Shown here one piece after another: positions 6,204 through 33,517 of a DNA stretch of 33,517 bases (within the stretch, counting starts at the first letter, position 1; each line of letters starts with the position of its first letter). Origin of the DNA: a virus (lineage: Duplodnaviria; Caudoviricetes); the IMG/VR virus record IMGVR_UViG_3300035527_000079, positions 1-33,517 of that record; one strand, 5' to 3'. The notes beneath the pieces are model-generated. The model saw nothing but the letters and a program-made list of their open reading frames with translations, was not told where the DNA came from and made no database searches. The position numbers were made by a program, and so were the translations under genes.

Positions 6204-6383
6204 GTGTTTTTTTAAGTATTTTTTAATTAATTTTTCGTGTGCCGGGATGGGATTTCTTCCTTTGTTATTAATCAACCGGCAAAGTGTAAAATGATTGATT
6301 CCTATCTCGTCGGCAATGGTTTTCCATTGCAGGCCTGTCTGTCTGTGTATATTTTTTAATTGATTTATAATTTTATTTTCCAT
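6186..6383 (-). CDS. small XRE/Cro-like helix-turn-helix regulator
   Basis: LQWKTIADEIGINHFTLCRLIN HTH pattern; located at the divergence point, flanked by palindromes. Confidence 0.8.
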   Translation of the reverse strand: MENKIINQLKNIHRQTGLQWKTIADEIGINHFTLCRLINNKGRNPIPAHEKLIKKYLKKHLTYVN

Positions 6384-6389
6384 GCTTCA

Positions 6390-6418
6390 AATATATCAAA
6401 GAAATTGACTAATGTCAA
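6390..6418 (-). promoter_or_regulatory. leftward promoter for the HTH gene overlapping operator palindrome 2
   Basis: -35 TTGACA (6418-6413), 17 nt, TGA-TATATT -10 (6398-6390); palindrome TTGACTAATGTCAA at 6405-6418; ATG at 6383. Confidence 0.7.
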
Positions 6419-6427
6419 GTTTTTTTC

Positions 6428-6455
6428 TTGACATATGTCAATTTTTATATATAAT
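6428..6455 (+). promoter_or_regulatory. rightward promoter overlapping operator palindrome 3
   Basis: TTGACA (6428-6433), 16 nt, TATAAT (6450-6455); palindrome TTGACATATGTCAA at 6428-6441. Confidence 0.8.
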
Positions 6456-11975: not shown

Positions 11976-12362
11976 ATGGACGAAATCAAAAAACTAAAAA
12001 AACAGATAGAAATCTTAAAAAATCGAATCAAAGAACTTGAGGATCAAGGATACGGATGGAATCAATGCGTAGTCTGCGGACACGGGTGGAAGCAACGCAA
12101 AGATAAAAAATCTTTAAGGTGTCCAAGGTGCTCAAGGAAAAACTGGGAAGATGGAAAAAGAAAAAAACAGTCATACGGAATCGAAAAGCTGGAAATCGGA
12201 GAATCGAAAATAATTCCGTGGAACCTTCTGCCGGATGGGAACATGGACCAGAAGAAGAATTACAGGGTCGCCCGCGCTGTTGATTCGTACAGCTGCCGGA
12301 CAAAAAGAAGATTCCGGAAAGAGCCAAACTACACCGGGTTAAAAATAACAAGGATTTCTTGA
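11976..12362 (+). CDS. basic zinc-ribbon protein, possible late transcription regulator
   Basis: Coiled N-terminus, CVVC...CPRC, Lys/Arg-rich; last gene before the packaging module. Confidence 0.65.
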   Translation: MDEIKKLKKQIEILKNRIKELEDQGYGWNQCVVCGHGWKQRKDKKSLRCPRCSRKNWEDGKRKKQSYGIEKLEIGESKIIPWNLLPDGNMDQKKNYRVARAVDSYSCRTKRRFRKEPNYTGLKITRIS

Positions 12363-12387
12363 TAAAAAACAAAACAAGAGATATAAT
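12359..12387 (+). promoter_or_regulatory. sigma70-type promoter for the packaging operon
   Basis: TTGATA (12359-12364), 17 nt, TATAAT (12382-12387); ATG at 12394 with no SD. Confidence 0.7.
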
Positions 12388-12393
12388 AAGAAA

Positions 12394-12933
12394 ATGAGAA
12401 ACCATAAAAAGTTCGAAGAGTTTATTAAAAAAGATGATGCGATTGATATTTTGTGCGCACACTTAGCGAACGGTGGAAACATTATTGAGTTTTGCGAAAT
12501 GCACGAAATACCGTTTTGTCAGCTGACAACGTGGGCTAGCAAGCCGGAAAACATTGATCAGTATAAGATGGCAATATTCTCACAGACTGAATGGGCCGTG
12601 CAAAAAATACTCAATGAGTTAAAAACGATGACATATGCAGACAGGGCAGCGGTTTTTTATGATGACGGAACGCTCAAACCTGTAACTGAGTGGCCCAAAA
12701 ACATAAGATCGGCGGTTGCCGGCATAGATGTAAAATTTCTTGATGATGGGACACAGGTAAACAAAATCAAGTTTGAGTCAAAAACGAAGACGCTTGAAAT
12801 GATGATGAAAAACCTTGGAATTTTAACAGACAGGGCCATGTCACTTCACTTGGTTGGAAGTGATGAAAAATTCATCGACGAATTTTTCGGGATGAAAAAA
12901 CAGGAAAACAAAACAGGAGAGGAAGACAAATGA
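12394..12933 (+). CDS. terS: terminase small subunit
   Basis: N-terminal HTH-like segment and ILNELKTMTYAD...DDGTLKPVTEWP...KIKFESKTKTLEMM pattern; position upstream of terL. Confidence 0.8.
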   Translation: MRNHKKFEEFIKKDDAIDILCAHLANGGNIIEFCEMHEIPFCQLTTWASKPENIDQYKMAIFSQTEWAVQKILNELKTMTYADRAAVFYDDGTLKPVTEWPKNIRSAVAGIDVKFLDDGTQVNKIKFESKTKTLEMMMKNLGILTDRAMSLHLVGSDEKFIDEFFGMKKQENKTGEEDK

Positions 12934-14330
12934 ATTATTTAATAATCTGGTTTGCCCTTGCGGTGATGTTTTTCCGCGTGCTGAAACTCGGATATGTTGT
13001 TGATGATGACTCCCGCCTCGCGCGCATGAAAGAAATACGCAAAAACAAAAAATTCCCACTATTGAAATTTATCCATGAATCAATGTACGGGGCCGGGTTT
13101 TTTAAGAACGCATGGGCCGACCACCTGGCAACGATTATTTTACACGGTGTCAACTGCTCACTTATCTATCGCATGACAGGGCACCTAGAGATCGCGTTGC
13201 TGTATCTGATAAACCCGATCAATAATCAAACAGTTTTATGGCTCAACGGCAGGCGGTATGCGTTATCGTTGCTCGCTGTTCTTGTGGCATGGAATTTCTG
13301 GCCAGCGGCCCCGGCCATGGCCATGTTTACGGCGTGGCTTCACGTGTCCGGCGTTGTTTTTCCGTTGTTGTTTTTGACAACACCGTTCTGGTGGGTTGTG
13401 CCGGTGTTGGCGATAATTGTTTTTTTGGCCGGAAGAAAAAAAATATTATCAAAAATAAGGGCACGCAAGGCGGCATACGCATCAAAAGAATCGTTTAAGT
13501 TTAATCCAAAAAAAATAATTTTATATATAAAGACAGTTGGATATCATTTTTTTAACTGCATCCTCCCGAATAAGCCTGCGATGTATCATGATTTCTTGAT
13601 GTATTACGGAGCGACAAAGGAAGGGAATAAGGATGCGTTCGCGTTTAATCTGGATTTCTGGAAGGGCGTGGCCGTGCTCGCGTTTCTTGCGTTCGATCAT
13701 TCGTTTTATGCGCTATGGTTTCTGCTGTTTGTTTCTCCGTGGTGCAATATATATCAGGTGACAATGACAGCCTCGGACAGGTATTGCTCGATTCCGAACG
13801 TTGGCGCGATGGCGTTGTTGTACAAATATGCGATGATGACGCCGTATGGAAATGAGATATTGCTCTGCTTCGCTGTTTTTTATTTGGTCAAATATCAACC
13901 GTTGTTTCACGCCTATAAAAATGTTGAGACGTTTCACCACTACCATATAGCGATAAACCCGGCCACGGTAAACTCGAGATTTTTTCTGTCAAAGATATTT
14001 CTAGCGAAAAAAGACCCGTTCTCCGCGTTCGGCATGATACGTCAGGGGATGCAGCATAAGCCAACGGATTTCAAGTTTCTGCTCGGGTTCATTGAGTGCC
14101 TCTTCGCCCTCGGCAAGCGGCAGTCAGCGTTCAAGGCGATGGAGTTCACCGAAAAACACATCCCGTTCGGAGAGGAGGAGGACTGCAAAAACCTATTTGA
14201 CGGAATCCGGAACCAGTTCCCGGAAGAATATAATAAATTCCGCGGGCTGGACAAAAACGGGCACAAGGTAATACACAACAATGGGAAGCCATATGTAAAA
14301 AACAATGCCTCTAAAACCAAAACAAGCTGA
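12930..14330 (+). CDS. polytopic membrane protein, TMTC-like GT-C glycosyltransferase with C-terminal TPR-like helices
   Basis: TM1 followed by YVVDDD; HLATIILHGVN; LLYLINP..NQTVLWLNGR; ASDRYCSIP..G; many TM segments; TPR-like C-terminus. Confidence 0.72.
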   Translation: MNYLIIWFALAVMFFRVLKLGYVVDDDSRLARMKEIRKNKKFPLLKFIHESMYGAGFFKNAWADHLATIILHGVNCSLIYRMTGHLEIALLYLINPINNQTVLWLNGRRYALSLLAVLVAWNFWPAAPAMAMFTAWLHVSGVVFPLLFLTTPFWWVVPVLAIIVFLAGRKKILSKIRARKAAYASKESFKFNPKKIILYIKTVGYHFFNCILPNKPAMYHDFLMYYGATKEGNKDAFAFNLDFWKGVAVLAFLAFDHSFYALWFLLFVSPWCNIYQVTMTASDRYCSIPNVGAMALLYKYAMMTPYGNEILLCFAVFYLVKYQPLFHAYKNVETFHHYHIAINPATVNSRFFLSKIFLAKKDPFSAFGMIRQGMQHKPTDFKFLLGFIECLFALGKRQSAFKAMEFTEKHIPFGEEEDCKNLFDGIRNQFPEEYNKFRGLDKNGHKVIHNNGKPYVKNNASKTKTS

Positions 14331-15760: not shown

Positions 15761-17806
15761 ATGAGAATAGGAAGAAAACCATTAGGTGACGCAGGGCTAA
15801 ATGAATACTCTGATAATTCGAATAGAACCATTGAGCACTTAGCTGAGCTGCAAGGCCGCGCCGGGTCTATCCGGTACCAGACGATGTCAAAGGGTGACGA
15901 TATTGTCGGTATGATTTTGCGCGTACATAAAAATCCTATCAGGTCCGCATCATGGAACATACCATATCCGTCCAACGTAACAGATAAGGAAAAACTTGCC
16001 ATAGAGGTAATCAAAGATAAACTGTTTGGGGAATCCGGATCAGAATTTGACGCGTTTTTGGGTCAAATATTATCAATGCTTGAGTATGGATTTTCGGTGT
16101 TTGAGCAATACTATCAGCCGGAAAGAATTGGAAGCACGATGTATCTTGTGCCGCAGATAGAACAAAGGATGCAAACATCCATTGAAGAAATTTTACCTAA
16201 AAAGAAAATCATCAGGCAGTTAACGATCGATAAAGGAACCATTGAAATCCCGTTTGAAACTTTGTTGTTTTTTTCGCTCAACAAACAAGGAGAAGACTGG
16301 CGCGGGGAATCCTTGCTCCGTAACGCGTATGCCTCATACAAGCGTAAAAAGATTTATCAGAAGTGGATGGGAATAGGTGTACAGCGAAGCGTTTCGGGCA
16401 TCCCTTCGATGGAGGTTCCGTTGAGCGTTAAATACGGGAGCGAGGAATATACTGCCGTTGAAACGATGTTAAAAAATATTTGCCATCATGAAGAAGCGTA
16501 CATGATAACGCCGGAGGGGTATAAATTCATGTACCACGAATCGAAGTTTGACGCCGACCCTGTTCAGAAAGCGATAGACGGGTGTAACTCGGGAATGGCG
16601 TTAAGCGTTCTGGCACAGTTTGTTATGTTAGGGCAAAATGGGAATACGGGCGCGTTCGCGTTATCTAGAGACCAGAGTGATTTTTTCCTTGACGGGTTAC
16701 AGTACATCATAAACTTGATATGCGGCGTTATCAACTCGCGCGTGATTAATCCGTTTATTAAAATTAATTTTGGTGAAAGCGTTGATCCGGCACGTGTGCG
16801 AATAAAAGGTATGAACTTAAACAAGAAAGCCGGACAGGAATTGGCAAACGTTTTATCTGTCTTGAGCCAGTCAGGATTTGTCAAGCCAACTACAGACGAT
16901 GAAGTACAGCTTAGGAACAATCTGGAAATGCCGGAACTCACGGAAGAAGAACTTGAACGGAGAGAAAATCAGCCTGAACCGTCTGCGCCAGTTGAAAATA
17001 AAATACAGTTTGCCGAAAAAATTACAAGAGATGAAAGGCAGAAATATATCGAGGACACAAATAAAGAGGTTCTTGATTTTATGCAGGCTAACCTTGCGCT
17101 CATAAAGGATAAAATGATCGCGGACATTGAGTCGACCCTTAAAAAGGGAACCATTGACATTCAGGGCTTAAAAAATGTCACCGTTTCATCATCGAAATAT
17201 CTTAAAGGGCTACAAAGAAAGCTATCAGGAATCGCCGTTGAATCGTTTGAGTGCGCAAAGAAACAGGCAAAGAAAAACTCGATAAAACTTGCGGATATTG
17301 ACCCTAAAGATATAGAGGATAAAACGTTAAAGCAATACGTGCTCAACGAATCAACATCCATAGTGGACAAGCAGACATCCGGGATGCTTAACCGAGCGAT
17401 ACTTACAGCGTCTAATAACTCCTTGAAAAATTTATCAATCGCGCAAACGATGTCGAATGTTTCAAAGGCGGTTGATAAATACATCACATCAGCAGGTGTT
17501 GTTGTTGACGGATCGCTTGTTGTTGTTGGCACGTCGAATTTTGGAGAATATCAGTTTAATAAACAGATAGAAGATCAGCTTTGGGGGTACAGGTTTGTAA
17601 ATCCATCTCCTGAGGCTGAAATTTGCAAGTGGTACAAAGGAAAAACGTTTTCGATCAATAGCCCGGAACTTGCCGAGGCTACGCCGCCATTACATCCAAA
17701 TTGCAATTCATACATGGAGCCGATTTATAAGACGGAGAAAAAGCCTGAAGAGATTGATGACGTAATCCCGCCGCCAACGATACGTCAAGGAAAGACAATA
17801 TTCTAA
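15761..17806 (+). CDS. portal protein (Mu gp29/DUF935-like) fused to a Mu gpF/SPP1 gp7-like head morphogenesis domain
   Basis: LSMLEYGFSVFE, GESLLRNAY, GAFALS, INPFIKINFG (portal); C-terminal IC..YKGK...PPLHPNCNS (gpF). Confidence 0.88.
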   Translation: MRIGRKPLGDAGLNEYSDNSNRTIEHLAELQGRAGSIRYQTMSKGDDIVGMILRVHKNPIRSASWNIPYPSNVTDKEKLAIEVIKDKLFGESGSEFDAFLGQILSMLEYGFSVFEQYYQPERIGSTMYLVPQIEQRMQTSIEEILPKKKIIRQLTIDKGTIEIPFETLLFFSLNKQGEDWRGESLLRNAYASYKRKKIYQKWMGIGVQRSVSGIPSMEVPLSVKYGSEEYTAVETMLKNICHHEEAYMITPEGYKFMYHESKFDADPVQKAIDGCNSGMALSVLAQFVMLGQNGNTGAFALSRDQSDFFLDGLQYIINLICGVINSRVINPFIKINFGESVDPARVRIKGMNLNKKAGQELANVLSVLSQSGFVKPTTDDEVQLRNNLEMPELTEEELERRENQPEPSAPVENKIQFAEKITRDERQKYIEDTNKEVLDFMQANLALIKDKMIADIESTLKKGTIDIQGLKNVTVSSSKYLKGLQRKLSGIAVESFECAKKQAKKNSIKLADIDPKDIEDKTLKQYVLNESTSIVDKQTSGMLNRAILTASNNSLKNLSIAQTMSNVSKAVDKYITSAGVVVDGSLVVVGTSNFGEYQFNKQIEDQLWGYRFVNPSPEAEICKWYKGKTFSINSPELAEATPPLHPNCNSYMEPIYKTEKKPEEIDDVIPPPTIRQGKTIF

Positions 17807-17922
17807 TGATTGAATTTAGGTGCAAGAAATGCAGAAAATTATTGTTTAAATATAAAAGAAATGCGATAATAGAAGTAGAAATAAAGTGTGATAGATGCGG
17901 AGAGATTAATAAAACAAGATAA
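17806..17922 (+). CDS. com: Com-family zinc-finger RNA-binding regulator (38 aa), not in ORF track
   Basis: MIEFRCKKCRKLLFKYKRNAIIEVEIKCDRCGEINKTR*, matching the Mu Com pattern RCxxCxKLLFK...EIxCxRC; TAATG coupling to the portal gene. Confidence 0.85.
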   Translation: MIEFRCKKCRKLLFKYKRNAIIEVEIKCDRCGEINKTR

Positions 17923-17932
17923 ATAAATTTTA

Positions 17933-17949
17933 GAGAGCCTTTGAGCCCC
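17933..17949 (+). promoter_or_regulatory. putative Com-binding RNA site GAGAGCC-TTT-GAGCCCC
   Basis: Bipartite GAG(N2)CC(N3)GAG(N2)CC starting 10 nt after the com stop codon. Confidence 0.7.
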
Positions 17950-17980
17950 ATGATAAATAATTCGTGGGGCTATTTTTTTT
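17944..17980 (+). terminator. intrinsic terminator in front of the protease/capsid genes
   Basis: AGCCCCATGA (17944-17953) pairs with TCGTGGGGCT (17962-17971) with one G-U pair, followed by A and T8. Confidence 0.8.
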
Positions 17981-17997
17981 AAAAAAAAGGAGATATT

Positions 17998-19500
17998 ATG
18001 CCAGGCGCTTTTGATGATAATTATGCTAACAGACAAATATTTTTGTTTTCTGAGATTGACCAGTGGTCAGCTGAATACGTTGTCAGGCAGCTTTTGGCAA
18101 TGGACAGAGAATCAAACGAAGAGATAACAATTTTCATAAACTCTTGTGGTGGCGGGGTAAGAGATATGTTTGCCATAACGGACACGATGAAGATTGTTAA
18201 GTCGCCAATAAGAACCGTTTGTGTTGGAATTGCCGCAAGCGCCTCTGCTGTTATTTTATCATCAGGAGATACAAGGCTTGTAAGTAAAACTTGCGAAATT
18301 ATGATCCATGAGCTTAGCGCGGGAACGTTTGGCTCTATGTCCTCTATGATGGACAATGTAGAGCAATTCAAAAAATTACAAAAAAAACTTGTTGACTTAT
18401 TGGCAGAAAACACAGGAAAGACATCAGGTCAGATTGAAGAATCTATGAATCGTACAGATAAATATTTTAACGCGATGGAGGCCGTTTCGTTCGGGTTGGC
18501 TGATAGAATAATTAATGATCAGGAAGCCCAAGCGTTAAAACTATCCGAATCGATAACTGTCGAAGGGTACGAGATCAAAGGCAAAGAAATTCAGATTTTA
18601 CGTGAAGGCAAATATATTCATCCTGTATATGGTGATATTCTTATCACTGAAAAAATGCTTCACAAAATGAAAGAGAATTTTGACAACAATGTCCGCGGGT
18701 GCGACATATCTTATGATTACACGCATGACAACGATTCCGGGGAGGCGCCGGCGGCGTTATGGTTAAGAGGTCTTGAGGTTCGTCAAAATGATGACGGAAA
18801 AGGGAAAGGACTGTTTGCGAAGGTAGAATTTACTCCAATGGGACAGAAGAAAGTCTCTGAGAAGGAGTATAAATACTCAAGCGCAGATTTTAGGATTGAT
18901 TACATCGACCAACACGGAGAACATCACCCCTATGTTTTATGTGGCGGCACGCTGACTAATCGTCCATTTATAAAAAACATGAATCCAATAAAGCTATCAG
19001 AGAATTATAAGAAGGAGGTTAAATCAATGGACAGAAAACAACTAATCGCCGAATTGCAGGGCCACGGCGTAGATGTTACTGCCTTACTTAAGGAAAAAGA
19101 ATCCTTGTCCGCAAGGGTTCGTGATCTTGAGGCGAAGATTACGGAGTTAAACGCTCTTCCGGCGCAGAAAGAAAGTGAAATCAAGGCGTTGAAAGATTCC
19201 CTAAGTGCGGCCAATGAAAAGATTGTCGTGAACGAAAAAACGGCTACCTTTGAAGGGTTGGTTGCAGAAGGAAAGTGTATTCCGGCGCAAAAAGAAAGCA
19301 TCCTCAACACGTTTAAAACGGCTGAGGACATTTCCGAGTTTTACAAAGACGCTCCGGTTATTGTCAACATGTCAGCCAAAGGAAGTGGAGACGACAACAA
19401 TAACGAGGACTTGACAGACGCGGAGGCAGAGCTTGTCAATTCCGGGGAATACACGCGCGAAGAAATCATTGAAGCAAGAAAGCCGGTAACGAAAAAATAA
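17998..19500 (+). CDS. ClpP-like protease fused to a Mu gpI-like prohead protease and scaffold
   Basis: INSCGG, GIAASAS, IMIHE, DKYFNAMEAVSFGLAD (ClpP S-H-D); then YDYTH, APAALW, VEFTP.G...YKYSSADF, LTNRPF (Mu I-like); then coiled coil. Confidence 0.88.
   Translation: MPGAFDDNYANRQIFLFSEIDQWSAEYVVRQLLAMDRESNEEITIFINSCGGGVRDMFAITDTMKIVKSPIRTVCVGIAASASAVILSSGDTRLVSKTCEIMIHELSAGTFGSMSSMMDNVEQFKKLQKKLVDLLAENTGKTSGQIEESMNRTDKYFNAMEAVSFGLADRIINDQEAQALKLSESITVEGYEIKGKEIQILREGKYIHPVYGDILITEKMLHKMKENFDNNVRGCDISYDYTHDNDSGEAPAALWLRGLEVRQNDDGKGKGLFAKVEFTPMGQKKVSEKEYKYSSADFRIDYIDQHGEHHPYVLCGGTLTNRPFIKNMNPIKLSENYKKEVKSMDRKQLIAELQGHGVDVTALLKEKESLSARVRDLEAKITELNALPAQKESEIKALKDSLSAANEKIVVNEKTATFEGLVAEGKCIPAQKESILNTFKTAEDISEFYKDAPVIVNMSAKGSGDDNNNEDLTDAEAELVNSGEYTREEIIEARKPVTKK
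19027..19500 (+). CDS. nested in-frame scaffolding protein (Mu gpZ-like internal start)
   Basis: AAGGAGGT at 19012-19019 followed by in-frame ATG 19027 (MDRKQLIAEL...), just after the protease domain. Confidence 0.7.
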   Translation: MDRKQLIAELQGHGVDVTALLKEKESLSARVRDLEAKITELNALPAQKESEIKALKDSLSAANEKIVVNEKTATFEGLVAEGKCIPAQKESILNTFKTAEDISEFYKDAPVIVNMSAKGSGDDNNNEDLTDAEAELVNSGEYTREEIIEARKPVTKK

Positions 19501-19535
19501 ATATCGGTTAAAAATATAAAGGGAGGAAAAAAGAA

Positions 19536-19991
19536 ATGTCTCTAAGTGCAAATAAAGTTATTCGAAGAAAATCCGCGCCTACACCTAAAAAGTTAAAGGT
19601 TGTAGACGGGGCAGTGCATATTCATGTTGGGGCTAACCTGAATTATGAAGCGTCAAACATCGGTTACGTTATGCCGGCAACTGACGTTTTAAACGCCGAG
19701 TTTGCCGGGATCGCCCTGGAGGAGTTGAACGTTGCCGCGGCTGATAATACATCTGATGGAACCTATGAAGTTTTGGTTCTTCCGCGCGGCGCGGGTGATG
19801 AGGTTTTGATGGACGTTCATGACGCGATCACAATCGCAAACGAGGGTGATCCGGTTTATGTTTATGACGATGATGATGTTGGTTTATCGGCAAGCGTCAC
19901 GAACACAACAGGCGGGCTTGTTGGAATTATCCGGCAGTTTGTAAGCGCAAACAAGGCATGGGTTCAGCTGGTACAGCACCCAACGTTATAA
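19536..19991 (+). CDS. head decoration/cement protein
   Basis: Between scaffold and capsid genes; FAGIALE...GDPVYVYDD...VG pattern. Confidence 0.7.
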   Translation: MSLSANKVIRRKSAPTPKKLKVVDGAVHIHVGANLNYEASNIGYVMPATDVLNAEFAGIALEELNVAAADNTSDGTYEVLVLPRGAGDEVLMDVHDAITIANEGDPVYVYDDDDVGLSASVTNTTGGLVGIIRQFVSANKAWVQLVQHPTL

Positions 19992-20023
19992 TAAATTTTT
20001 AATTTTGTAAGGAGGAAAAAATT

Positions 20024-20974
20024 ATGGACGTAAAAGCATTTTTGGCTTTGTTCAACGTTAAGGCGCGGACAGAGTTCAACCGAGGCTTCCAAAGCATTAA
20101 GCCTGAAATTGATGGCTTGCTTTATGAATACCCTTCCGGACCAGTGGAAAAAATGAATTTCCCGTTTTTTGGGTTCTTTCAGGGGATGAAGAAGTTTACC
20201 GGAAAGTCAGAGTTTGAGAGTTTCCCGGAAGCGATGAACTTCTATGTCACTAATGAAGAGTGGCAAGAAGGCGTTGAGATTCTGGCAAAATACATCGACC
20301 GGGCCGCCGGTATTGGCGATCTAAACCTGTACGTTAAGCGTATCGGAGAATTGCCGCAGGTGGCCGCGGAACATCCCTATGAATTGGCGCTCGACATGCT
20401 TGAGGCTGGGGACGCGAACACATACGGAACGTGTTTTGATGCGCAGAATCTGTTTGATACCACGCACAGCTATTCAACCTCTGCGGGTTCGCAAAGCAAC
20501 CTGTTAAGCGGTACCGGTACGACCGAGTCAAACGTTATTACCGACCTTAATTCAGCATTGGCCGCGTTAAACGGGTTTTATATTCAGCAAGGTGGAACCT
20601 CAAACAGCAAAAAACGAAAGCTTAATAAACGGATGAAATTGGTTGTTGTTTGTCCGGATGAGCTATACACAACGTTTTGGAATATCAAAACTAAAGCCCG
20701 TTTGTCCGCTGGCGAAACAAACCCATGGCAGAATCGGTTTGAGGTTGTTTCCCGCCCGTTTTCTGATGATGATGATTGGTATCTGATCAACGTCGACAAT
20801 TCAGATAATTTAAGCTTGTTTTTGTATCAGGTGGAAAAACCTGTAGAGCTTGAATATCCGTCTGAAACGGACGAAAGCTACAAGAAAGAAAAGAAATTCC
20901 AATGGAATATGTACGGACGTTACGCTGTGGCTTATGGCGCATGGTGGAAAGGCGTGATGACTACAAACACCTAA
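20024..20974 (+). CDS. major capsid protein (Mu gpT-like)
   Basis: VTNEEWQEGVEI, CFDAQNLFDTTH, LVVVCP, DDWYL, GRYAVAYGAWW; strong SD AAGGAGG. Confidence 0.9.
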   Translation: MDVKAFLALFNVKARTEFNRGFQSIKPEIDGLLYEYPSGPVEKMNFPFFGFFQGMKKFTGKSEFESFPEAMNFYVTNEEWQEGVEILAKYIDRAAGIGDLNLYVKRIGELPQVAAEHPYELALDMLEAGDANTYGTCFDAQNLFDTTHSYSTSAGSQSNLLSGTGTTESNVITDLNSALAALNGFYIQQGGTSNSKKRKLNKRMKLVVVCPDELYTTFWNIKTKARLSAGETNPWQNRFEVVSRPFSDDDDWYLINVDNSDNLSLFLYQVEKPVELEYPSETDESYKKEKKFQWNMYGRYAVAYGAWWKGVMTTNT

Positions 20975-20999
20975 TCAAAAAAAACTAATAATCGATAAC

Positions 21000-21030
21000 G
21001 TCGGGGGCTGGCCGGCCCCCGGCATTACTT
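21000..21030 (+). terminator. GC-rich hairpin after the capsid gene (weak terminator or mRNA stabiliser)
   Basis: GTCGGGGGCT/GGCCCCCGGC stem with two G-U pairs; poor U tract (ATTACTT). Confidence 0.6.
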
Positions 21031-21047
21031 AACAGGAAAGGCAGAAA

Positions 21048-21344
21048 ATGAGAGTTAAGCTAAAAAAAGAACTTGAGTTTATCCACAAATCAGGATTAAA
21101 GGAATTTTCCGTTGAGGAAATCAACGGGCGGCACGTTATTAAAGAGGGAAATTTTAAACAAAACATTAAGGGCTCCGAATATAAGTTGATTTTAGAGTGC
21201 CGGATTCCGGAAGTTGAAAAGGTTAATGAGAAGGTAAAGAAAACCGAGAGAAATGTTAAGGCAAGCCGACAAAGAAAACCTGTTGAGAAAAAAGAAGAAC
21301 CTGAACCAGAAAAACAAAAAGACCCGTTGGAGGATGATTTTTAA
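21048..21344 (+). CDS. hypothetical charged protein downstream of the capsid gene
   Basis: 98-aa ORF coupled (TAATG) to the next gene. Confidence 0.75.
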   Translation: MRVKLKKELEFIHKSGLKEFSVEEINGRHVIKEGNFKQNIKGSEYKLILECRIPEVEKVNEKVKKTERNVKASRQRKPVEKKEEPEPEKQKDPLEDDF

Positions 21345-21772
21345 TGTATTGTGATGTCCAGGACCTTGAAAGTTATTTTTTAAACCGATCATTTAAGTGT
21401 GGGGATTACCTTACAAACGGTAAGGCATCCGCTTTTATTTTGGCCGATACGGCTATTATAAACGCCTCGCTAAGGAATAAATATACTCTCCCGATCACAA
21501 ACCAGGACGATCTTTTGCTGTTAAAAACGATCAATGAATGGATGGTTGTCGGCACGATAGATGATATCTTCCGGGAAAAAAACGATGACGGAAGTTTTGA
21601 GCGCGGAAGGAACACACGCAAGACGGCTCTTGATATGCTAAAAGACATACGAGAGGGAAAAATTTTGCTTAATAGCACGTCGATTACATCAATTATTAAA
21701 TTCAACAACGTTAATTCTGATGGCGATGTAGTTGAGCATCGATTTAAGGAATCGGAAATAGGCAATGAGTAA
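21344..21772 (+). CDS. head-tail adaptor (Mu gp36/DUF1320-like)
   Basis: MYC..QDL...IINASL..KYTLPI...ALDMLKDIREGKI.L pattern; position. Confidence 0.78.
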   Translation: MYCDVQDLESYFLNRSFKCGDYLTNGKASAFILADTAIINASLRNKYTLPITNQDDLLLLKTINEWMVVGTIDDIFREKNDDGSFERGRNTRKTALDMLKDIREGKILLNSTSITSIIKFNNVNSDGDVVEHRFKESEIGNE

Positions 21773-22265
21773 ATTTAGAATAAAACTCACGAAAGAATCG
21801 CAAAGGAAGATCGACAATCTCGCACGCGCCGGAAAAGTCGATCTACGGCCATCGCTCAAGGTTATCGGGATTGGATACAGGAAAGAGGTTGATCAGATAT
21901 TTAGCAAACAACAACCCCGCGGAATTGGGTTGCGCTGGCCGCCGCTATCAGAAAAATATGCTGAATGGAAAGAAAAGAGGTTCCCTGGCAGGCCGCTACT
22001 TGTTAGGACCGGGGCACTAAAGGAATCGATGACGCAGGAAGGCGCCCAGGGGAACATAACGGCGATATCAAAAACATCAGCGATTTTCGGGACGAGCATA
22101 CACTATGGGATCTACCATGACAAAGGCGGTTCGAAGATTCCAAAGCGTAATTTTAGCGAGCCAAGCGAAAGGCGTAGACTGATATGGCTTGACCAGATTG
22201 AAAAAGATATTATTCATAATTTTGAACAAAACGGAATTGATGTTGAGGGGAGTATATTCGCATGA
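21765..22265 (+). CDS. virion morphogenesis protein (Mu gpG-like)
   Basis: WPPLS..Y..WK...LLVRTGALKES...FGTSIHYGIYH..G...IPKRNF. Confidence 0.85.
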   Translation: MSKFRIKLTKESQRKIDNLARAGKVDLRPSLKVIGIGYRKEVDQIFSKQQPRGIGLRWPPLSEKYAEWKEKRFPGRPLLVRTGALKESMTQEGAQGNITAISKTSAIFGTSIHYGIYHDKGGSKIPKRNFSEPSERRRLIWLDQIEKDIIHNFEQNGIDVEGSIFA

Positions 22266-22726
22266 TAAATGATGAAGAAGCCTTGTTAAAATCTATTCAT
22301 TCATACGTTAAGTCAAACCTTAATACAAAGATATCAGAAATAAACACAGAAAAAGATGATGATTATGATATTTCATCGATAACTGCAGACGATGACCATT
22401 ATGTTTTTGCCGGCGAACTCCAAGATCTTCCCAACCATGCGTTTGTTGCTTTTGCGATCGATGGGGAAATAGACGTCCAGGGCGGGCACGGGCAAAAGAT
22501 TTCATTGCCAAGCATATCGATCGAAGTCGTCGTTGATAACGAAAAAAAAGAAGGCATGTATTATAAATCATTGAGATACATGCGGGCGTTATATGAGACA
22601 ATATTGGAATATTCGGCAATAGAAGCCGATGACATACAGTTAACAAAGTTTATACCAATGATTGTAAGTAATAGGGGTCGTGAATTGGTGGTGAGCGGGG
22701 TATCGCTATCAGTCGCAATCAGTTAA
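22262..22726 (+). CDS. putative tail terminator/completion protein
   Basis: Position, size and acidic alpha/beta character. Confidence 0.6.
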   Translation: MINDEEALLKSIHSYVKSNLNTKISEINTEKDDDYDISSITADDDHYVFAGELQDLPNHAFVAFAIDGEIDVQGGHGQKISLPSISIEVVVDNEKKEGMYYKSLRYMRALYETILEYSAIEADDIQLTKFIPMIVSNRGRELVVSGVSLSVAIS

Positions 22727-22740
22727 AACAGGAGATTATT

Positions 22741-23037
22741 ATGATACCAAAGTTGCCAGAAAAAGATTTAAAATTGATCAATGATTCTTTTAAGCAGGAT
22801 TCAGGGGTAGAAACGTTGATTAAGAACGCTGATGGAAAACTTGTTAAGGCGGTAAAAAAAGTTTCTAACGAAAAAACCGTTGAACTTGATTATTTTGCCG
22901 GCAAAACTTTAAAACACCAAAAATCTGTTGTCTTGCCTGACGGACAGAAGGTCGTCGGAGTCAAGGGGCAGAAATACGAAGATATCCCGGAGAAATTAAG
23001 GTCATTGGTCTCTTGGGACAAATCCGATTTTATTTAA
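22741..23037 (+). CDS. hypothetical protein
   Basis: SD AGGAG; lies in the tail operon. Confidence 0.75.
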   Translation: MIPKLPEKDLKLINDSFKQDSGVETLIKNADGKLVKAVKKVSNEKTVELDYFAGKTLKHQKSVVLPDGQKVVGVKGQKYEDIPEKLRSLVSWDKSDFI

Positions 23038-23051
23038 AGGAGGCATAAAAG

Positions 23052-23906
23052 ATGTCAATACCAAACGTAAGAGATTTTTTTGGGATTAAATATTTAATCC
23101 TGTATAACATCACAACAAAGGTTCCGTTTTGTGTTTTACGCGCAATCGGAGAGGTAAACTTTGATAACGCGCAGGAGGCCGTAACGCTTAACGGCGGTCA
23201 CACCGAGGCGCCGTATGACGTTGAGTACGGACAGCCTGATCCGACGTTAACCTGTACGGTCCGTGAATATCCTGCAGAACTGTTTAAGGCGTTTGAAAAG
23301 TACACGATCACGGAAAATAGCGCAGAGACAGGTGGGGCATTGGATGCAAGCCCAACAAACGGACAGGGAACAAGCGTTATTAACGCGACAAACGGGATCG
23401 CAACGGTAGCGATCACGACTGCCGCTGACCTTATTTTCGGTCGATATATCCTAAAAGCAACCGCGGCGCAAGAGCTTGATCTTTACGTTGCCGGGCTTGA
23501 GGATTCTTTCGAGGATATCGAGGGTAAAGTAAATTCAACGAGCATTGAAACAACCACAGCCGGAACTGTTGCAATTGCAAACACCGGAATTTCTCTGACC
23601 GTTGTTGGAACGCCAAATTACACCATCGGAGATACAGCATACGTTGATATCCGACCGATAAACACCGGATCAACAAAGGTTGTTGTTGGTGCAGGGACAA
23701 CTCCATCGAATTTCGGCGTCCGGTGCGTGTTCCCGAGGAAGACAGACGGTGTTCTGCATTACATTGATCTGTTCAACGTATCAGGCCGCGGTATGCCGTG
23801 GCGTGGTGTTTCGCGCGAATTTTCAGAGTTTGAGATTAATCTTAAGCCACTTGCAAGGTCATCGGATGGCGCGGTTTATGAAATGGTTCGCGTCTTAGGA
23901 TCATAA
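23052..23906 (+). CDS. major tail tube protein with Thr/Gly-rich inserted beta domain
   Basis: Beta-rich 284-aa protein upstream of chaperone and tape measure; SD AAGGAGG; followed by a hairpin. Confidence 0.75.
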   Translation: MSIPNVRDFFGIKYLILYNITTKVPFCVLRAIGEVNFDNAQEAVTLNGGHTEAPYDVEYGQPDPTLTCTVREYPAELFKAFEKYTITENSAETGGALDASPTNGQGTSVINATNGIATVAITTAADLIFGRYILKATAAQELDLYVAGLEDSFEDIEGKVNSTSIETTTAGTVAIANTGISLTVVGTPNYTIGDTAYVDIRPINTGSTKVVVGAGTTPSNFGVRCVFPRKTDGVLHYIDLFNVSGRGMPWRGVSREFSEFEINLKPLARSSDGAVYEMVRVLGS

Positions 23907-23922
23907 CAGGATAAAAATAATC

Positions 23923-23966
23923 TGGTGGGATAACGGTGGATGTTTCCTGTCATTTGCCGCCCACCA
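23923..23966 (+). promoter_or_regulatory. long bulged hairpin between tail tube and chaperone genes
   Basis: TGGTGGG/CCCACCA outer stem and CGGTGGATG/CATTTGCCG inner stem (with G-U pairs); no U tract. Confidence 0.55.
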
Positions 23967-23989
23967 AAATAAAACAGGAGAGGTTTAAT

Positions 23990-24367
23990 ATGGTTAAAAT
24001 TAAAGGAAAAGAGTATCGGTTAAAATTTACAATAGGATTTTGGAAAAAAATCAAAGAAGATTGTGGCGTTATCCAGGAAAACATGGAAAAGCGTCTTAAC
24101 GAAGATTTCGGGAATGTGGCATCAAAGATAGTTTATTACGGAATTTATTATGGCTTGCCAAACAAGCCGGAGAACATAAACGAGATGGAAGTTTCGCTCA
24201 ATGACATTGAAAGCGATCTTGATAGGAGTGTTGTTGACGATATTGAGCAGGCCCTGATTGATGGAATGACAGAGGCCGAGAAGAGAGCGGTTGAACTTGT
24301 GAAAAAGAAACGTGACAAGCAGTACGCTGACATAGAAAAAGAGATTGAAGGTAAAAAAAAAGAATAA
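23990..24367 (+). CDS. tail assembly chaperone (lambda gpG-like)
   Basis: MVKIKGKEYRLKFT..; ATG 23990 behind AGGAGAGG; ends in an A9 slippery run. Confidence 0.8.
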   Translation: MVKIKGKEYRLKFTIGFWKKIKEDCGVIQENMEKRLNEDFGNVASKIVYYGIYYGLPNKPENINEMEVSLNDIESDLDRSVVDDIEQALIDGMTEAEKRAVELVKKKRDKQYADIEKEIEGKKKE

Positions 24368-24642
24368 CGTTTGATGAGTACAGGTTTTCTATCGAGGCAA
24401 CGCTCATATTTAATAGTGGTTTTTCGTTGACAGAAATTTACGGACTTACATATAAGGAGGCCGAAAAATACTATGATTTCTTTTGCCGCAAAGAAGATGA
24501 AAAAAATCGGATGAATTTTCATTTGTTACTAACCGCTGGTCGAGGGAAAAAGGAAGATGTGAAGCGGACATATCGCATGTTTGAAAACGAAGAGCAGGAA
24601 AACGATATTGAAGATCAATTCCAAGGAGTAAACTTTGGCTAA
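24353..24642 (+). CDS. -1 frameshift extension of the tail chaperone (gpGT-like)
   Basis: A9 at 24353-24361; the -1 frame is open from 24355 (..RITFDEYRFSIEATLIFNSGFSLTEIYGLTY..) to 24642. Confidence 0.8.
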
Positions 24643-26548
24643 TAAAATTGAGTTTAAGGTATTCGGGGACGCAAAAGAGCTCTCTAAGGGTCTATCCTCA
24701 GCTAAAAAACAATTTGATTCACTTAAAAGAAACGCTGGTCTTGCATTTATAGGGTTGACAGCTTCGATTGTTGGGTTTACGGAAGCCGCACGAAAGCAAC
24801 AACTCGCCGTTAATCAGCTTAACCAGGCCCTCCAAAATACAGGAAACTATTCAGATAGAGCAAGCAGAGATTTACAGAAATACGCCAAGAGCCTTCAAGA
24901 CGTGACTTTGTTCGGAGATGAAACAATACTCACCGCACAGTCTCTGATTGCGTCTTTTGGATTCGAAGGAGAAACCCTAAAAGCATTGACCACGGCGACA
25001 CTTGACCTGGCACAGGCCAAAGGAATGGATTTAGTTGCCGCGGCAGACCTAGTGTCCAAGGCCGTTGGTTCTTCGACAAATGCTCTTAGTAGGTACGGGG
25101 TCCAGGTGACAGGCGTCGCCGGAAGCACAGCAAGGGCAGAGTCGGCTGTGCAGAATATTACAAAGCTGTTCGGAGGACAGGCGAAAGTGGCCGCTGAAGG
25201 GCTTGGAGTCAATGTCCAGTTTAAAAATACGATGGGAGATTTAGCTGAAACGATAGGATTTGCGCTTGCTCCAACAGTTATAAAACTCACGTCTGCAATG
25301 AAAGAATTTATTGAAACGGCTGATCAGAACCCGAAGTTAATAAAACTCGGAGCCGGGTTTCTGCTGATTGGAACGGCTATCGCCGGAACATTGGCGGCTA
25401 TAGGGTTTCTTGGAAGTGGGATAATATCTGCCATAGGGCTTTTTGGAAGTCTTGGGGCGGCCATTACGCCTGTACTCGCAACCGTAACATCACTTACCGT
25501 CGCATTACCTGCGCTTGGGATTGCCGGGGCTACGGCGTTAGGATTGTGGATTGCAAAACAGGAAGCCGTGACTAAATGGTTTGACGATATAACAAGGAAA
25601 TTTGATTTATTCGGTGTGCGGACAAGAGAAGCACAGTTGCAAGAGGCTGATCTTGCCAACAAGTTAGCAGTTGCCAGAAAGAAGGCATACGATGAACTAA
25701 ACGCTGAAAAGAATAAGAGTCTACAAGAAGAAGCCGCAATGCAAGCCGAACACGAAGAAAAGATTCGTGCGCTTCAACAAGAAACGAAGGATTTCATAAA
25801 AAATAATGAGTCAGAGCTTAAAGAACTCTCTATGACAAGAACGCAAGAAGAGCTTGAAGCTTTGAAGGAAAAGTGGGCGGCTGAACGGGATGGGTTAGTA
25901 GAGCACCTTGATTTAAAACTTCAAATATTATCCGAGGCCGGAATAAATGAAAGCAACCAGGTTAAAGAAATTGAAGAGAAGAAAGCTGAGATAATAGAAA
26001 GATATAATAAATTAATCCAGAAATCAGAAAAAAAGACAACCGATGCAAAAGAAAAAAGCTTACAAGATAGAGTTGATTCTGTTGCCGATTATTCATCTCA
26101 AACAATAGGGATATTGCGTCAGGCCGGCGTACAGACAAAAGCGCTTGAGATCACGAATGCAGTGATTCAGCAAGGCGGCGCCATTATGAAGGCTTGGAAT
26201 TCCGCACCATTCCCAGCAAATCTTCCGGCGGTAGCGTTAACAACCGCCCAGACAGGGCTTATTTTATCGCAAATATCAAAGGCTTCATACGCTACAGGAA
26301 CGCCAAATATACCATATGATATGGATGCAACAGTCCACAAGGGAGAAACTATCATCCCGAAAACTTTTGCTGAGGGAATCCGCGAAGGGGATTTAACGTT
26401 GTCCGGGGGAGGCAACCGGCCAGGCGGGTTAAACTTAAATTTTGATGGTGCGACATTCGTTGGCGTAACGGAAGATATCGTTGATCAAATATTCACAAAG
26501 GCAAGCGAAATGACAAAAAATAGAACACTAGTCGCGGGGGTTGCATAA
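24635..26548 (+). CDS. tape measure protein
   Basis: Ala/Gly-rich helical protein with TLFGDE, hydrophobic middle, coiled coil and C-terminal YATGT...VHKGETIIP; TTG start behind AAGGAG. Confidence 0.9.
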   Translation: MANKIEFKVFGDAKELSKGLSSAKKQFDSLKRNAGLAFIGLTASIVGFTEAARKQQLAVNQLNQALQNTGNYSDRASRDLQKYAKSLQDVTLFGDETILTAQSLIASFGFEGETLKALTTATLDLAQAKGMDLVAAADLVSKAVGSSTNALSRYGVQVTGVAGSTARAESAVQNITKLFGGQAKVAAEGLGVNVQFKNTMGDLAETIGFALAPTVIKLTSAMKEFIETADQNPKLIKLGAGFLLIGTAIAGTLAAIGFLGSGIISAIGLFGSLGAAITPVLATVTSLTVALPALGIAGATALGLWIAKQEAVTKWFDDITRKFDLFGVRTREAQLQEADLANKLAVARKKAYDELNAEKNKSLQEEAAMQAEHEEKIRALQQETKDFIKNNESELKELSMTRTQEELEALKEKWAAERDGLVEHLDLKLQILSEAGINESNQVKEIEEKKAEIIERYNKLIQKSEKKTTDAKEKSLQDRVDSVADYSSQTIGILRQAGVQTKALEITNAVIQQGGAIMKAWNSAPFPANLPAVALTTAQTGLILSQISKASYATGTPNIPYDMDATVHKGETIIPKTFAEGIREGDLTLSGGGNRPGGLNLNFDGATFVGVTEDIVDQIFTKASEMTKNRTLVAGVA

Positions 26549-27336
26549 TGTCAAAAGGATTCCGTTTCTTTGGCACAGATCACAATAATTTGTCATTCGA
26601 TAACACGGTTACTGTGTCAAGTCGTGACGGAAACAAAGATTTCATGTTTGATAATTTGATATATACAAGGTGGATATCTAACGGTGAGGATTCAGATGGT
26701 GATTCTGTTTCCGTTGAGGTCGACTACGGAACGAACAGAACCTTTGACAGCTTTTATGTTTACAATACAAACATAGACGATATCGGCATTGATTACTGGA
26801 ATGGCTCGTCTTGGGTCGCGGTTTCCGGGTTGACTAAAAGCGATGATGGAAGGTATGTTTTCGGGCACTTGTCATCATCCGTTACAGCGACGAAGGTTAG
26901 AATAACAGGCTCGAATACGATTACAGCAGATCAGGAGAAATCTGTAACTTTATTTTACACGTTTCTTGAAATAGGCCAGTTTGAATATTTTCCTGATGCA
27001 AAATATAAAAACAATAATAAGCAAGACATTAAAAAACTCGACGACGGAAGAAATTTTATCATTGAGCGAGGCGGCGCGTTCGAGGAAGAATTAAGGTTTA
27101 AATCGCACGTTAACCAAAACGATATTGATTTAATGCGGACACTAATTGACAGAAAAGAACCGTTTTATGTCTGGCCATGCGGAGGAGATACGAGTATATT
27201 CACATACTCGTTTAAGCCATATCGGTTTCAGGATATTTTTAAGGTCGCAATCGTTGGTTCGGATCAAGGGGAGTATACGAAAAATTATTACCATGCCGGA
27301 TATAATGATAAAATTAAAATGATAGAGGTTGCATGA
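26548..27336 (+). CDS. distal tail protein-like, with probable inserted discoidin/carbohydrate-binding-like domain
   Basis: Directly after the tape measure gene; TRW.S...VDYG...YWNGSSW..ATKVRI pattern. Confidence 0.6.
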   Translation: MSKGFRFFGTDHNNLSFDNTVTVSSRDGNKDFMFDNLIYTRWISNGEDSDGDSVSVEVDYGTNRTFDSFYVYNTNIDDIGIDYWNGSSWVAVSGLTKSDDGRYVFGHLSSSVTATKVRITGSNTITADQEKSVTLFYTFLEIGQFEYFPDAKYKNNNKQDIKKLDDGRNFIIERGGAFEEELRFKSHVNQNDIDLMRTLIDRKEPFYVWPCGGDTSIFTYSFKPYRFQDIFKVAIVGSDQGEYTKNYYHAGYNDKIKMIEVA

Positions 27337-28568
27337 CATTAACTTATCAGCAAATTTATGAGAGATATTCACAGGTTGAGTTTCGCAGAAGGCTCTACGT
27401 TAAACGTCTCAAGCAGGATGGAACGTATGAGGACAGTTTTACTGAAATATCCGCGGGCCTGCTGCCGGACGGATCGCTGAACAGATTGTCCTTATCGCTC
27501 CCAAACTCATCGTATAGTTTCGGCAAGGTTCAGGTCAGTAACGCGAGCCTTAAGATATTGAGCGCATATCAGGAGTTTGCGGGAGAACTTGATCCGAAGT
27601 CAATATTTAGCGGATACATACGTCACTGGTCAATCGTTAAGGTCGTTGATTCGTTAATTGATAAATACACTGACCCGGATAATCCGGAAGAAGTCAGCGA
27701 GACGGTTTTTCAGGGATTGCTCGACTCAACAACGGCGCAGACAGAACAGACGACCGAATCTATAACCGCACTCGATTTTTTAACAGTTCTCGACGAGATA
27801 AACGTCAACTCATTGACGCTGGCACAGACGACACTCAGTGATCTTATTTATGAGATAATGAACAGGTCTGAGTTTACAAAATTTTTTAATGTCAGCAACT
27901 CATCAACTTATATCAGCCCCGGCTATGACGCAACGAGTATTGACGTATCTCAATATGACGGAACAGTGCTTGAAATGCTTGAGGACTTAGCCAAGGGGCA
28001 CAGCATATTTTACGTTGACCCATCTGATAATTATTTTTATTTTGTCGAGGCCACGCCTACGTCGGCGGTGCAGTTTAATTTCTTGGAATCAAACAACAGG
28101 AAGATGTCTATATCAAAATATCGCGAGGGAGTGGACAGACAAATAAATAAATGGTACTGGGAGGACACAGACATATCCTCGGTTGTCGATCCTGAACCGA
28201 TTAACCCGAGATCGGAAACGCTGAATATTAAGGGCGTCACAAACAATACGCAGAGGCAGAATTTACTTGATTTTGTTCTTGAGAAAACAAAGAACGCGAA
28301 GCCGTACTTTTCCTTAAAGGTTCCATATTTGCCAACGATAAAACTTCTTGACAGGGTCGTTATTCAGTCCTTTGGCCAGGCTCCGCCGAATGTCGCGCGC
28401 TGGGGCATGTTTTTATGGACCGATTCTGGCACGCCCGACCCTGAAACAGCGCCGAGGTGGGCGCAGACAGCAGGGATAACGATATCAACGGACAAAGAGT
28501 GGATGGTAAGGGGAATAAATCACGATAAGAATTTGACAACCACCATAGAGGTTGAGCAGATATTATAA
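27333..28568 (+). CDS. tail tip hub protein (Tal/baseplate hub-like)
   Basis: Position; VFQG...ITALD.L..L and IKLLDRV patterns. Confidence 0.6.
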   Translation: MTLTYQQIYERYSQVEFRRRLYVKRLKQDGTYEDSFTEISAGLLPDGSLNRLSLSLPNSSYSFGKVQVSNASLKILSAYQEFAGELDPKSIFSGYIRHWSIVKVVDSLIDKYTDPDNPEEVSETVFQGLLDSTTAQTEQTTESITALDFLTVLDEINVNSLTLAQTTLSDLIYEIMNRSEFTKFFNVSNSSTYISPGYDATSIDVSQYDGTVLEMLEDLAKGHSIFYVDPSDNYFYFVEATPTSAVQFNFLESNNRKMSISKYREGVDRQINKWYWEDTDISSVVDPEPINPRSETLNIKGVTNNTQRQNLLDFVLEKTKNAKPYFSLKVPYLPTIKLLDRVVIQSFGQAPPNVARWGMFLWTDSGTPDPETAPRWAQTAGITISTDKEWMVRGINHDKNLTTTIEVEQIL

Positions 28569-28578
28569 GGAGAGTGTC

Positions 28579-29400: not shown

Positions 29401-29449
29401 AAATCAATTTTTATCTAACATTTTAACCGCAAAAAAGGTATAATAAGCT

Positions 29450-29878
29450 ATGGTACTTTTAAACGTTCAGCAAACATTTATCGCGAATTTTGGCCTGTCA
29501 AGGACAGGAAAAACCGTTACCGTTTCCGTGCTTGACACCTCCGGAAATGTTGTCGGGGCCGGGTATTCTGCCGGCTCTGTTGTTGAATTATCAGACGGTC
29601 AATACGGTTGTGCGTTTACGTTTACAACTGCCATGACAGGTTATATTAAGTTTTCGAATACAACGGATAATTTAGAAGTTTACGTTCCTTTCCTTGCTGT
29701 CGCTGATTATCGGGCAGACATTACGGCTATTAAAAAAATCGAACTGAATAGATGGAAAATATCAAGTAATCAGTTAACTATCTATGATGATGATGGATCA
29801 ACTCCACTATATGTATTTAACCTTAAACGTTTAGGTGTAGCTGACGGAGAAACACCTGACGAGAGAGTTCCGGTATAA
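29450..29878 (+). CDS. putative structural protein
   Basis: Beta-rich; NRWKI..NQLTIYDDDGSTPL..FNL pattern; TATAAT 5 nt upstream of the ATG. Confidence 0.7.
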   Translation: MVLLNVQQTFIANFGLSRTGKTVTVSVLDTSGNVVGAGYSAGSVVELSDGQYGCAFTFTTAMTGYIKFSNTTDNLEVYVPFLAVADYRADITAIKKIELNRWKISSNQLTIYDDDGSTPLYVFNLKRLGVADGETPDERVPV

Positions 29879-33100: not shown

Positions 33101-33167
33101 TTATGAAATCAATCTTGAAGAAGATTAAGGACTTAACAACTATCAAACTTACTGTGAAAGGATAACT

Positions 33168-33470: not shown

Positions 33471-33517
33471 TCTGCGATAACTGCAAACAAATTAATACGC
33501 CATATTGTAACCATTTT

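Follow-up and report, generated by a model that had tools for sequence, protein, structure and literature searches.

Com proteins and related RNA switches

The described system closest to the locus treated here is com-mom of phage Mu. In it, the RNA site of the four-cysteine zinc ribbon protein Com lies right after the zinc-finger codons, inside the tail of com. This site is a small hairpin whose loop reads C(N)2-3GA, and it overlaps a larger hairpin that is inhibitory and hides the Shine-Dalgarno (SD) sequence of mom. According to PMC6483171, CC(N)2-3GAG is recognised by Com when presented as the loop of a small hairpin and not as a linear bipartite word; this binding as a hairpin loop was shown for a Haemophilus Com, whose zinc finger alone binds. 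Genes related to com occur before bacteriocin and lysis genes as well, and PMC6240691 describes their general role as unexplored. Here we analyse a com-like locus in a stretch of 33,517 nucleotides (nt), called the window below, which is the whole viral record IMGVR_UViG_3300035527_000079 (Caudoviricetes; linear, 77% complete). A short com-like gene is followed there by a Com-type RNA motif, the Com box, which overlaps a predicted intrinsic terminator in front of the head genes, and we argue that Com probably prevents this terminator from forming.

Antitermination of the BglG/LicT type relies on a protein that stabilises an RNA hairpin, the ribonucleic antiterminator (RAT), overlapping the 5′ arm of an intrinsic terminator; compared with the window, these systems have a different protein fold, a larger RNA site, control by phosphorylation and sugar-uptake targets. 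In phages, lambda N and Q and HK022 put open late or delayed genes by overcoming terminators, for which they modify RNA polymerase processively, and Ogr of P2, a small four-cysteine zinc protein, binds promoter DNA. By contrast, each terminator described here carries its own RNA site, and covariation that includes G.U pairs points to RNA. In ANTAR systems, as presented in PMC3369931, an RNA-binding protein likewise holds small hairpins with conserved loops as an antiterminator, and multiple targets form regulons. ANTAR, however, depends on two hairpins and on dimerisation induced by a signal, and its targets are mostly nitrogen genes, whereas the present locus has an unrelated zinc ribbon of 38 amino acids (aa), one mini-hairpin in the window and phage late-gene targets.

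The likeness to Mu consists of the four-cysteine zinc ribbon, the mini-hairpin overlapping a larger hairpin, and the placement of the RNA site directly behind the zinc-finger codons. The differences are that the overlapped hairpin is a U8-tailed terminator and not an SD-hiding structure, that the next gene encodes a head protease-scaffold and not Mom or a methyltransferase, and that the site lies after the com stop codon, the protein having no C-terminal tail. The locus is not a com-mom system, since it has no mom and its hairpin does not hide the SD sequence.

A Com-family gene followed by a Com box and a predicted terminator

The elements of the locus are the following.

17806-17922, + strand: com-like gene, 38 aa, four-cysteine zinc ribbon (PF10122 Zn_ribbon_Com; phrog_13819 gpCom)
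17933-17949, + strand: Com box GAGAGCC-TTT-GAGCCCC, starting 10 nt 3′ of the com stop codon
17944-17980, + strand: predicted intrinsic terminator (fold and sequence), with a 10-base-pair (bp) stem 17944-17953/17962-17971, one A and T8 (17973-17980)
17987-17992, + strand: AAGGAG, the SD sequence for the protease-scaffold gene, not part of the terminator stem; nor is the ATG at 17998

A preliminary description of this DNA, made from the sequence alone, had pointed to a 38-aa Com-like open reading frame (ORF) coupled to the portal gene, to the box, to a second half-site that makes up most of the 5′ arm of a 10-bp hairpin with a T8 tail, and to the absence of mom. These observations hold. The ORF scores 31.4 bits against PF10122, above the Pfam gathering cut-off of 22.9, and its ATG shares one base with the portal stop codon (TAATG). 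Its cysteine pattern is CxxC-x18-CxxC, and it is 48% identical to Mu Com over 31 aa. The four cysteines are invariant in our Com-family alignment (A3), and the window protein keeps all near-invariant family residues that its length covers. Matches to the solved zinc ribbons eS27 and Rpo12 are weak (E-values 0.002-0.08). Judged by sequence, the 38-aa protein is a member of the Com family. Genes of this kind carry the label 'DNA-binding transcriptional regulator' at NCBI.

The consensus of the motif obtained by in vitro selection (SELEX) in PMC6483171 is NGAGNNCC(N)2-3GAGNNCCNN, and the bipartite motif given in the preliminary description equals it; what has to be refined, going by that paper, is that the motif is recognised as a hairpin loop. 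The Com box is the sole match to GAG-NN-CC-N2-3-GAG-NN-CC on either strand of the window, against 0.017 expected per window in 300 order-3 Markov simulations, and its CC(N)2-3GAG motif is located at 17938-17945. The predicted mini-hairpin has the pairs C17938-G17945, G17937-C17946 and G17935-C17948, an A17936.C17947 mismatch and the loop CUUUGA; with three pairs and one mismatch it has a stability of about 0 kcal/mol on its own. The terminator hairpin, with six G-C pairs out of ten, has a predicted free energy of -19 kcal/mol (z = -6.0; none of 200 shuffles was equally stable), and six of the ten bases of its 5′ arm (17944-17949) are the 3′ part of the second half-site of the box, the T8 tract following after one A. 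As had been noted earlier, the stem (17944-17971) leaves the SD sequence outside. The same bases pair in both structures, and the mini-hairpin and the foot of the terminator are thus predicted to be mutually exclusive.

Relaxed patterns revealed no further copies of the box in the window; a weak candidate inside an ORF at 22971 was taken as a chance occurrence, its stem being only partial. Rfam gave no match at the gathering score in the window or in 20 related loci, and at a relaxed threshold only chance-level matches in 17850-18050 (best E-value 0.89).

Conservation in relatives and among Com loci

A search with the protease gene yielded six loci, namely three copies of this phage and three relatives with 63%, 62% and 57% protease identity. 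Two of the relatives, L004 (63%) and L006 (57%), have kept com together with altered boxes (GAG-GGT-C-AC-GA-ACC-CC and GAG-GGA-C-ATT-GA-ACC-CC) and terminators of different sequence that show the same overlap. In L004 the closing pair of the mini-hairpin is U-A instead of C-G. The preliminary idea of a portal-coupled Com applies to the window and L004, where portal and com are adjacent; in L006 another ORF precedes com, and many copies of the box elsewhere lie far from or upstream of com.

To survey com genes more broadly, we combined two scans with Com alignments into 91 loci, the second scan being represented by the best 80 of its 139 matches. Two loci without the four cysteines were dropped. 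Clustering of the remaining 89 at 80% core identity gave 44 groups; after omission of one long ORF, 43 clusters were left, in which the strict box was sought between the last cysteine codon and 170 nt past the com stop. It is present in 18 of the 43 clusters and in none on the reverse strand, compared with 0.76 expected from shuffles. The 18 are a floor, given that the strict pattern also misses sites of the Mu type (clusters L317, L326 and L333). Nine of the 18 boxes sit on a terminator, four lie in the com tail, three are classed as SD hairpins (one of them truly inside the com tail) and two are unclassed. Variant boxes on terminators were recognised by eye in five clusters (L027, L280, L311, L325 and L332). 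Four clusters (L021, L022, L285 and L294) have nothing box-like downstream and are followed by small regulator-like ORFs; their Com-like proteins may use another target.

Covariation of box and terminator

The complementary survey started from the motif. The exact 14-base motif of the window was found at 121 viral loci, and flanks of 1200 nt (80 loci) or 300 nt (the rest) were examined in both the motif and the control sets for matches of at least 18 bits to the profile of alignment A3. Com is encoded in the fetched flank of 21 of the 121 motif loci, one of which is a copy of this phage; among 120 controls with the reversed motif there is a single such case (Fisher p = 5e-6). Likewise, 10 of 123 motif matches are followed by a terminator, as against 1 of the 120 controls.

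Covariation was then assessed with the pattern AGAG-NN-Y-C-N2-3-GA-R-NN-CC-N8-38-GG-NN-Y-T-N-TTTT, whose N positions are free of any imposed pairing. The scan covered 121 viral loci of about 510 estimated and gave 122 matches, 103 of them distinct. The two free positions pair within the mini-hairpin in 86 and 88 of the 103 hits (permutation means 42.6 and 49.7) and within the terminator in 85 and 85 (41.7 and 51.4); the best-pairing 3′ arm was taken where several fitted, which may inflate the terminator counts and leaves the mini-hairpin counts unaffected. Off-register control pairings are at or below expectation. When a single hit per flank-similarity cluster is kept, which takes out near relatives and not deep ancestry, the counts are 69 and 71 (mini-hairpin) and 67 and 68 (terminator) of 85, values reached by none of 20000 permutations. 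The three partners change together: at one position the 85 clusters include G-C-G (20), C-G-C (18), U-A-U (8) and A-U-A (4).

This pattern, lengthened by one T and applied to cellular genomes (120 loci of about 770, 119 distinct), gave mini-hairpin pairing in 48 and 49 of 119 hits, which equals background, and all four pairs form in 66 of 103 viral versus 14 of 119 cellular hits; a Com match lies beside 8 of the 119. Among box pairs, G.U outnumbers A.C by 32 to 7, suggesting that the box acts as sense-strand RNA rather than as a DNA palindrome. A reading as a DNA palindrome, whether Ogr-like or in line with the 'DNA-binding regulator' label, was rejected given this ratio and the free covariation of the stem positions.

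Linkage to com and the genes downstream

Com is encoded in the flank of 35 of the 103 viral box-terminator hits, in 28 of them at most 400 nt upstream, and five further hits have upstream a divergent CxxC-CxxC ORF that the profile missed. For 40 of the 68 hits without a flanking Com (all 32 terminator-like ones and eight picked by eye) the whole records, 38 in number, were searched; 11 of these encode Com elsewhere, two of them doubtfully (G013 and G037), versus none of 40 control records. The distance from com to the box ranges from 14 to over 700 nt, some copies have no adjacent com, and at least three box-terminators are present in each of G014 and G039. In two cellular loci (L479 and L521) the box-terminator is upstream of com, which might allow positive feedback. 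A com-box locus in Sporomusa acidovorans (L473) precedes a non-phage gene. The A.C mismatch variant seen in the window recurs beside com in L053, L065, L114, L133, L479 and L552.

Most functionally labelled genes that follow the box belong to the late class. Long flanks were at hand for 72 hits, 67 of which have an identifiable next ORF. Of these ORFs, 32 are head or packaging genes (three of them with a head family as second-best match behind an unknown family), 3 connector, 1 tail and 3 lysis genes; 3 have other functions, 3 belong to unknown families and 22 lack a match. Hence, of the 42 to which a function could be assigned, 39 serve the head, packaging, the connector, the tail or lysis. 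Twenty of the 32 head or packaging genes encode a protease or scaffold, as in the window. In four further loci (L026, L064, L085 and L329) the box lies right after com and overlaps an SD-containing hairpin without a U tract, and the next gene encodes the tape-measure protein, suggesting that one protein-RNA switch may have two outputs. The box of L070, right after com, also sits on an SD-containing hairpin without a U tract.

Proposed mechanism and alternative explanations

According to the folding calculations, the terminator has a pairing probability of 0.97 once its 3′ arm is made and of 0.03 when the whole box is held out. If only 17938-17946 is blocked, six upper pairs persist, separated from the U tract by five bases. 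Intrinsic termination requires the stem to close next to the U tract, and no termination would therefore be expected from such a remnant. The full hairpin is predicted to be 11-15 kcal/mol more stable than the Com-held state, a gap so large that Com could work only by kinetic capture during transcription, before the 3′ arm appears. In these models, Com probably pre-empts the foot of the terminator rather than melting a finished hairpin.

The sequence of events might be as follows. An upstream transcript, possibly starting before the small terminase gene, would yield terminase, portal and, through TAATG coupling, Com. Without Com, the 10-bp hairpin would close beside U8 and transcription would end near 17980. 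The box (17933-17949) would emerge about 20 nt ahead of the 3′ arm, leaving time for Com to clamp its C-UUU-GA loop. Once the foot is blocked, no more than about six upper pairs could form, 5 nt from the U tract, and termination would fail. Polymerase would then read on into the protease-scaffold, capsid and tail genes, so that head and tail genes would come on once Com accumulates; the timing or feed-forward role that this would give to Com is a guess. We consider it likely that Com seizes the mini-hairpin as it is transcribed and thereby keeps the foot of the terminator from pairing, a Com-dependent antitermination. The antiterminator role had been proposed in the preliminary description and gains support, at the level of comparative sequence evidence, from conservation in relatives, three-way covariation, linkage to com and the late genes downstream.

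Several observations weigh against this explanation. The mini-hairpin of the window, with its A.C mismatch, is weak: its predicted energy is +0.3 kcal/mol, whereas the 103 hits have a median of -3.5. Keeping it in place takes 14.8 kcal/mol, the median being 8.7. The U tract is predicted to pair with the SD sequence in the read-through RNA, with or without Com, in all three states considered. Mu Com has a C-terminal tail that is missing from the 38-aa protein, and this tail may be needed for RNA rearrangement in Mu, as stated in PMC6483171. In the com survey, 25 of the 43 clusters have no strict box, and three of the nine clusters with a box on a terminator represent the phage itself and the two relatives used to seed the query. 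Of the 38 records searched in full, 27, most of these being fragments, gave no Com match; among the five near-complete records three have none, one of them with a divergent zinc ribbon beside the box (L375). In G004 and G023, both near-complete, the box-terminators are perfect, and neither the profile nor a relaxed pattern detected an ORF resembling Com. As for the relatives, the closing position in L006 is an A.A mismatch, with neither a C-G nor a U-A pair. At the corresponding place, L005 (62% protease identity) keeps a strong terminator; its box does not match the consensus, and com is absent both between portal and protease and from the rest of its 17-kb, 19%-complete record. L005 either counts against a strict requirement for Com or marks a loss. 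The region of L005 that contains terminator and degenerate box (3881-4010) has an additional upstream hairpin with a C-UCAU-GA loop, and the switch has possibly been lost or replaced there. In G004 (locus L593; contig C1, about 30200-30700, - strand) the box-terminator is positioned about 200 nt after a promoter with a 12/12 consensus match, in a structured non-coding leader before a protease-capsid gene.

Four other explanations have to be considered. Com might activate translation as in Mu, with a leaky or bypassed terminator and Com freeing the ribosome site of the protease-scaffold gene. Translational activation is the sole output demonstrated for Com (PMC6483171), the box is found on the SD-covering hairpins before tape-measure genes described above, and U tract and SD sequence may pair in the read-through RNA. 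The window hairpin, however, excludes the SD sequence and ends in U8. Elsewhere, the distance from the hit to the following start codon is often in the range of tens to hundreds of bases. Although the SD sequence is free in a shorter fold, its bases are at most 17% unpaired in the read-through RNA whether or not the Com hairpin is held. Thus the folding models give no sign that Com activates translation in this phage, and we regard this explanation as very unlikely. Equally, Com could bind after termination and unfold the protective 3′ hairpin of its own transcript, a negative feedback on, or an adjustment of, the levels of terminase, portal and Com without any read-through. This would agree with the position of the box directly after com in many loci (the 28 of 103 noted above), and the two structures exclude each other whichever way the output runs. 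It is hard to reconcile with boxes in leaders without an adjacent com and in several copies per genome (G014 and G039), upstream of com (L479 and L521), about 200 nt after a consensus promoter (G004) or on SD-covering hairpins, placements that fit an ON switch for the next gene; moreover, the energy gap makes melting of a finished hairpin unlikely. We consider such feedback quite improbable.

A real RNA switch might also be thrown by a different factor, such as a host RNA-binding protein or the ribosome finishing com, with Com as no more than a frequent neighbour. G004 and G023, with perfect elements and no detectable com, would be explained in this way, and a ribosome that terminates on com could reach the box, which starts 10 nt past the stop codon. 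On the other hand, the conserved loop is the motif that a Com protein selected in SELEX, the linkage to Com is strong against controls, distances from com reach over 700 nt or no com is adjacent at all, and five more hits missed by the profile have the divergent CxxC-CxxC ORF upstream; the involvement of another factor instead of Com is accordingly a slim prospect. Finally, the window box might be a decaying relic, the terminator either setting a fixed, leaky ratio between upstream and downstream genes or being bypassed through another promoter or antiterminator. The weak mini-hairpin with its large energy gap and the terminator of L005, with a failed box and no com, would suit a relic. Nevertheless, Com is intact in its near-invariant residues, the A.C variant recurs with com in unrelated loci, and the consensus scan gave no promoter-like site from com to the protease gene. 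A strong terminator that is always active would work against the high expression required of capsid genes. A relic therefore seems to us a poor bet.

The window is a clean single-copy example of a candidate switch that is widespread and well supported, with a mini-hairpin weaker than usual. Whether Com zinc ribbons are a widespread and hitherto undescribed kind of switch for phage late genes is to our mind an evenly balanced question; they would act through a portable mini-hairpin placed in terminators or ribosome-site hairpins. The genes behind these would encode terminase, portal, protease, tape-measure and lysis proteins, and the resulting regulons and positive-feedback loops would set the timing of virion assembly, with Mu com-mom as a special case. 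No description of Com acting on terminators was found in the literature searched, which includes little subscription literature, so that an earlier description is possible. The name 'Com' was also absent from the text of the RNA-motif discovery papers searched, the 224-motif supplement of PMC5737381 being outside that search. If the antiterminator reading is true, late-gene control in these phages would be unlike that by lambda N/Q, HK022 put or promoter activators, as a 38-aa RNA-binding protein would open individual terminators, and many small, often unannotated com-like genes would gain a function. A protein-RNA switch as compact as this (about 40 aa and 50 nt) would be of use in synthetic biology.

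Gene setting and additional features of the window

The right arm of the genome, entirely on the + strand, has the order small terminase, membrane protein, large terminase, Mu-type portal, com, protease-scaffold, small virion protein, Mu gpT-like capsid, head-tail and tail genes. The left arm encodes RecT, YqaJ, a helicase and a primase-VapE protein, and judged by these protein family scans the phage does not belong to the Mu-like transposing phages. Among the 40 window proteins scanned, none matches the Mom family or a methyltransferase. The features that frame the Com locus are listed below.

12359-12387, + strand: candidate sigma-70-type promoter TTGATA-17-TATAAT, 11/12 consensus match, just 5′ of the small terminase gene
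15761-17806, + strand: Mu-type portal gene (PF06074, E-value 4e-31), its stop TAA overlapping the com start (TAATG)
17998-19500, + strand: ClpP-type protease (PF00574, residues 9-174) fused to a Mu gpI-like protease/scaffold (PF10123, residues 216-479), the first putatively gated gene
20024-20974, + strand: Mu gpT-like major capsid gene (PF10124)

The fusion at 17998-19500 thus unites two protease-type domains within one head protein and is common to three relatives. The capsid, head-tail and tail genes would be on the same read-through transcript as the protease-scaffold gene: no strong + strand terminator was found in 19500-33517, and the hairpin at 17944-17971 is the only strong + strand terminator-like site from the terminase genes to the end of the window. 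The promoter-like site at 12359-12387 might be the start of the transcript that reaches the Com box. In the consensus scan, which does not cover other promoter types, no + strand promoter-like site was detected between 16024 and 18277, and hence none between com and the protease gene.

Taken as 12359-12394 (+ strand), the promoter-like site 5′ of the small terminase gene stops 7 nt short of the ATG, and the transcript may therefore be leaderless. Back-to-back near-consensus promoters, with 12/12 matches on the + and 11/12 on the - strand, lie at the point of divergence of the two arms (6370-6455). A 466-aa multi-pass membrane protein is encoded between the small and large terminase genes (12930-14330, + strand); it has no NCBIfam match and, in Pfam, only a weak match to a C-terminal repeat. 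Its early DDD motif is reminiscent of GT-C-type glycosyltransferases. The capsid gene is followed by a G+C-rich inverted repeat without a U tract (20990-21025, + strand), possibly an mRNA-stabilising hairpin. Further downstream (23936-24635, + strand), a gap of 270 nt separates a tail-chaperone gene (PF12363) from the gene for the tape-measure protein; a programmed frameshift product is usually encoded at such a position.

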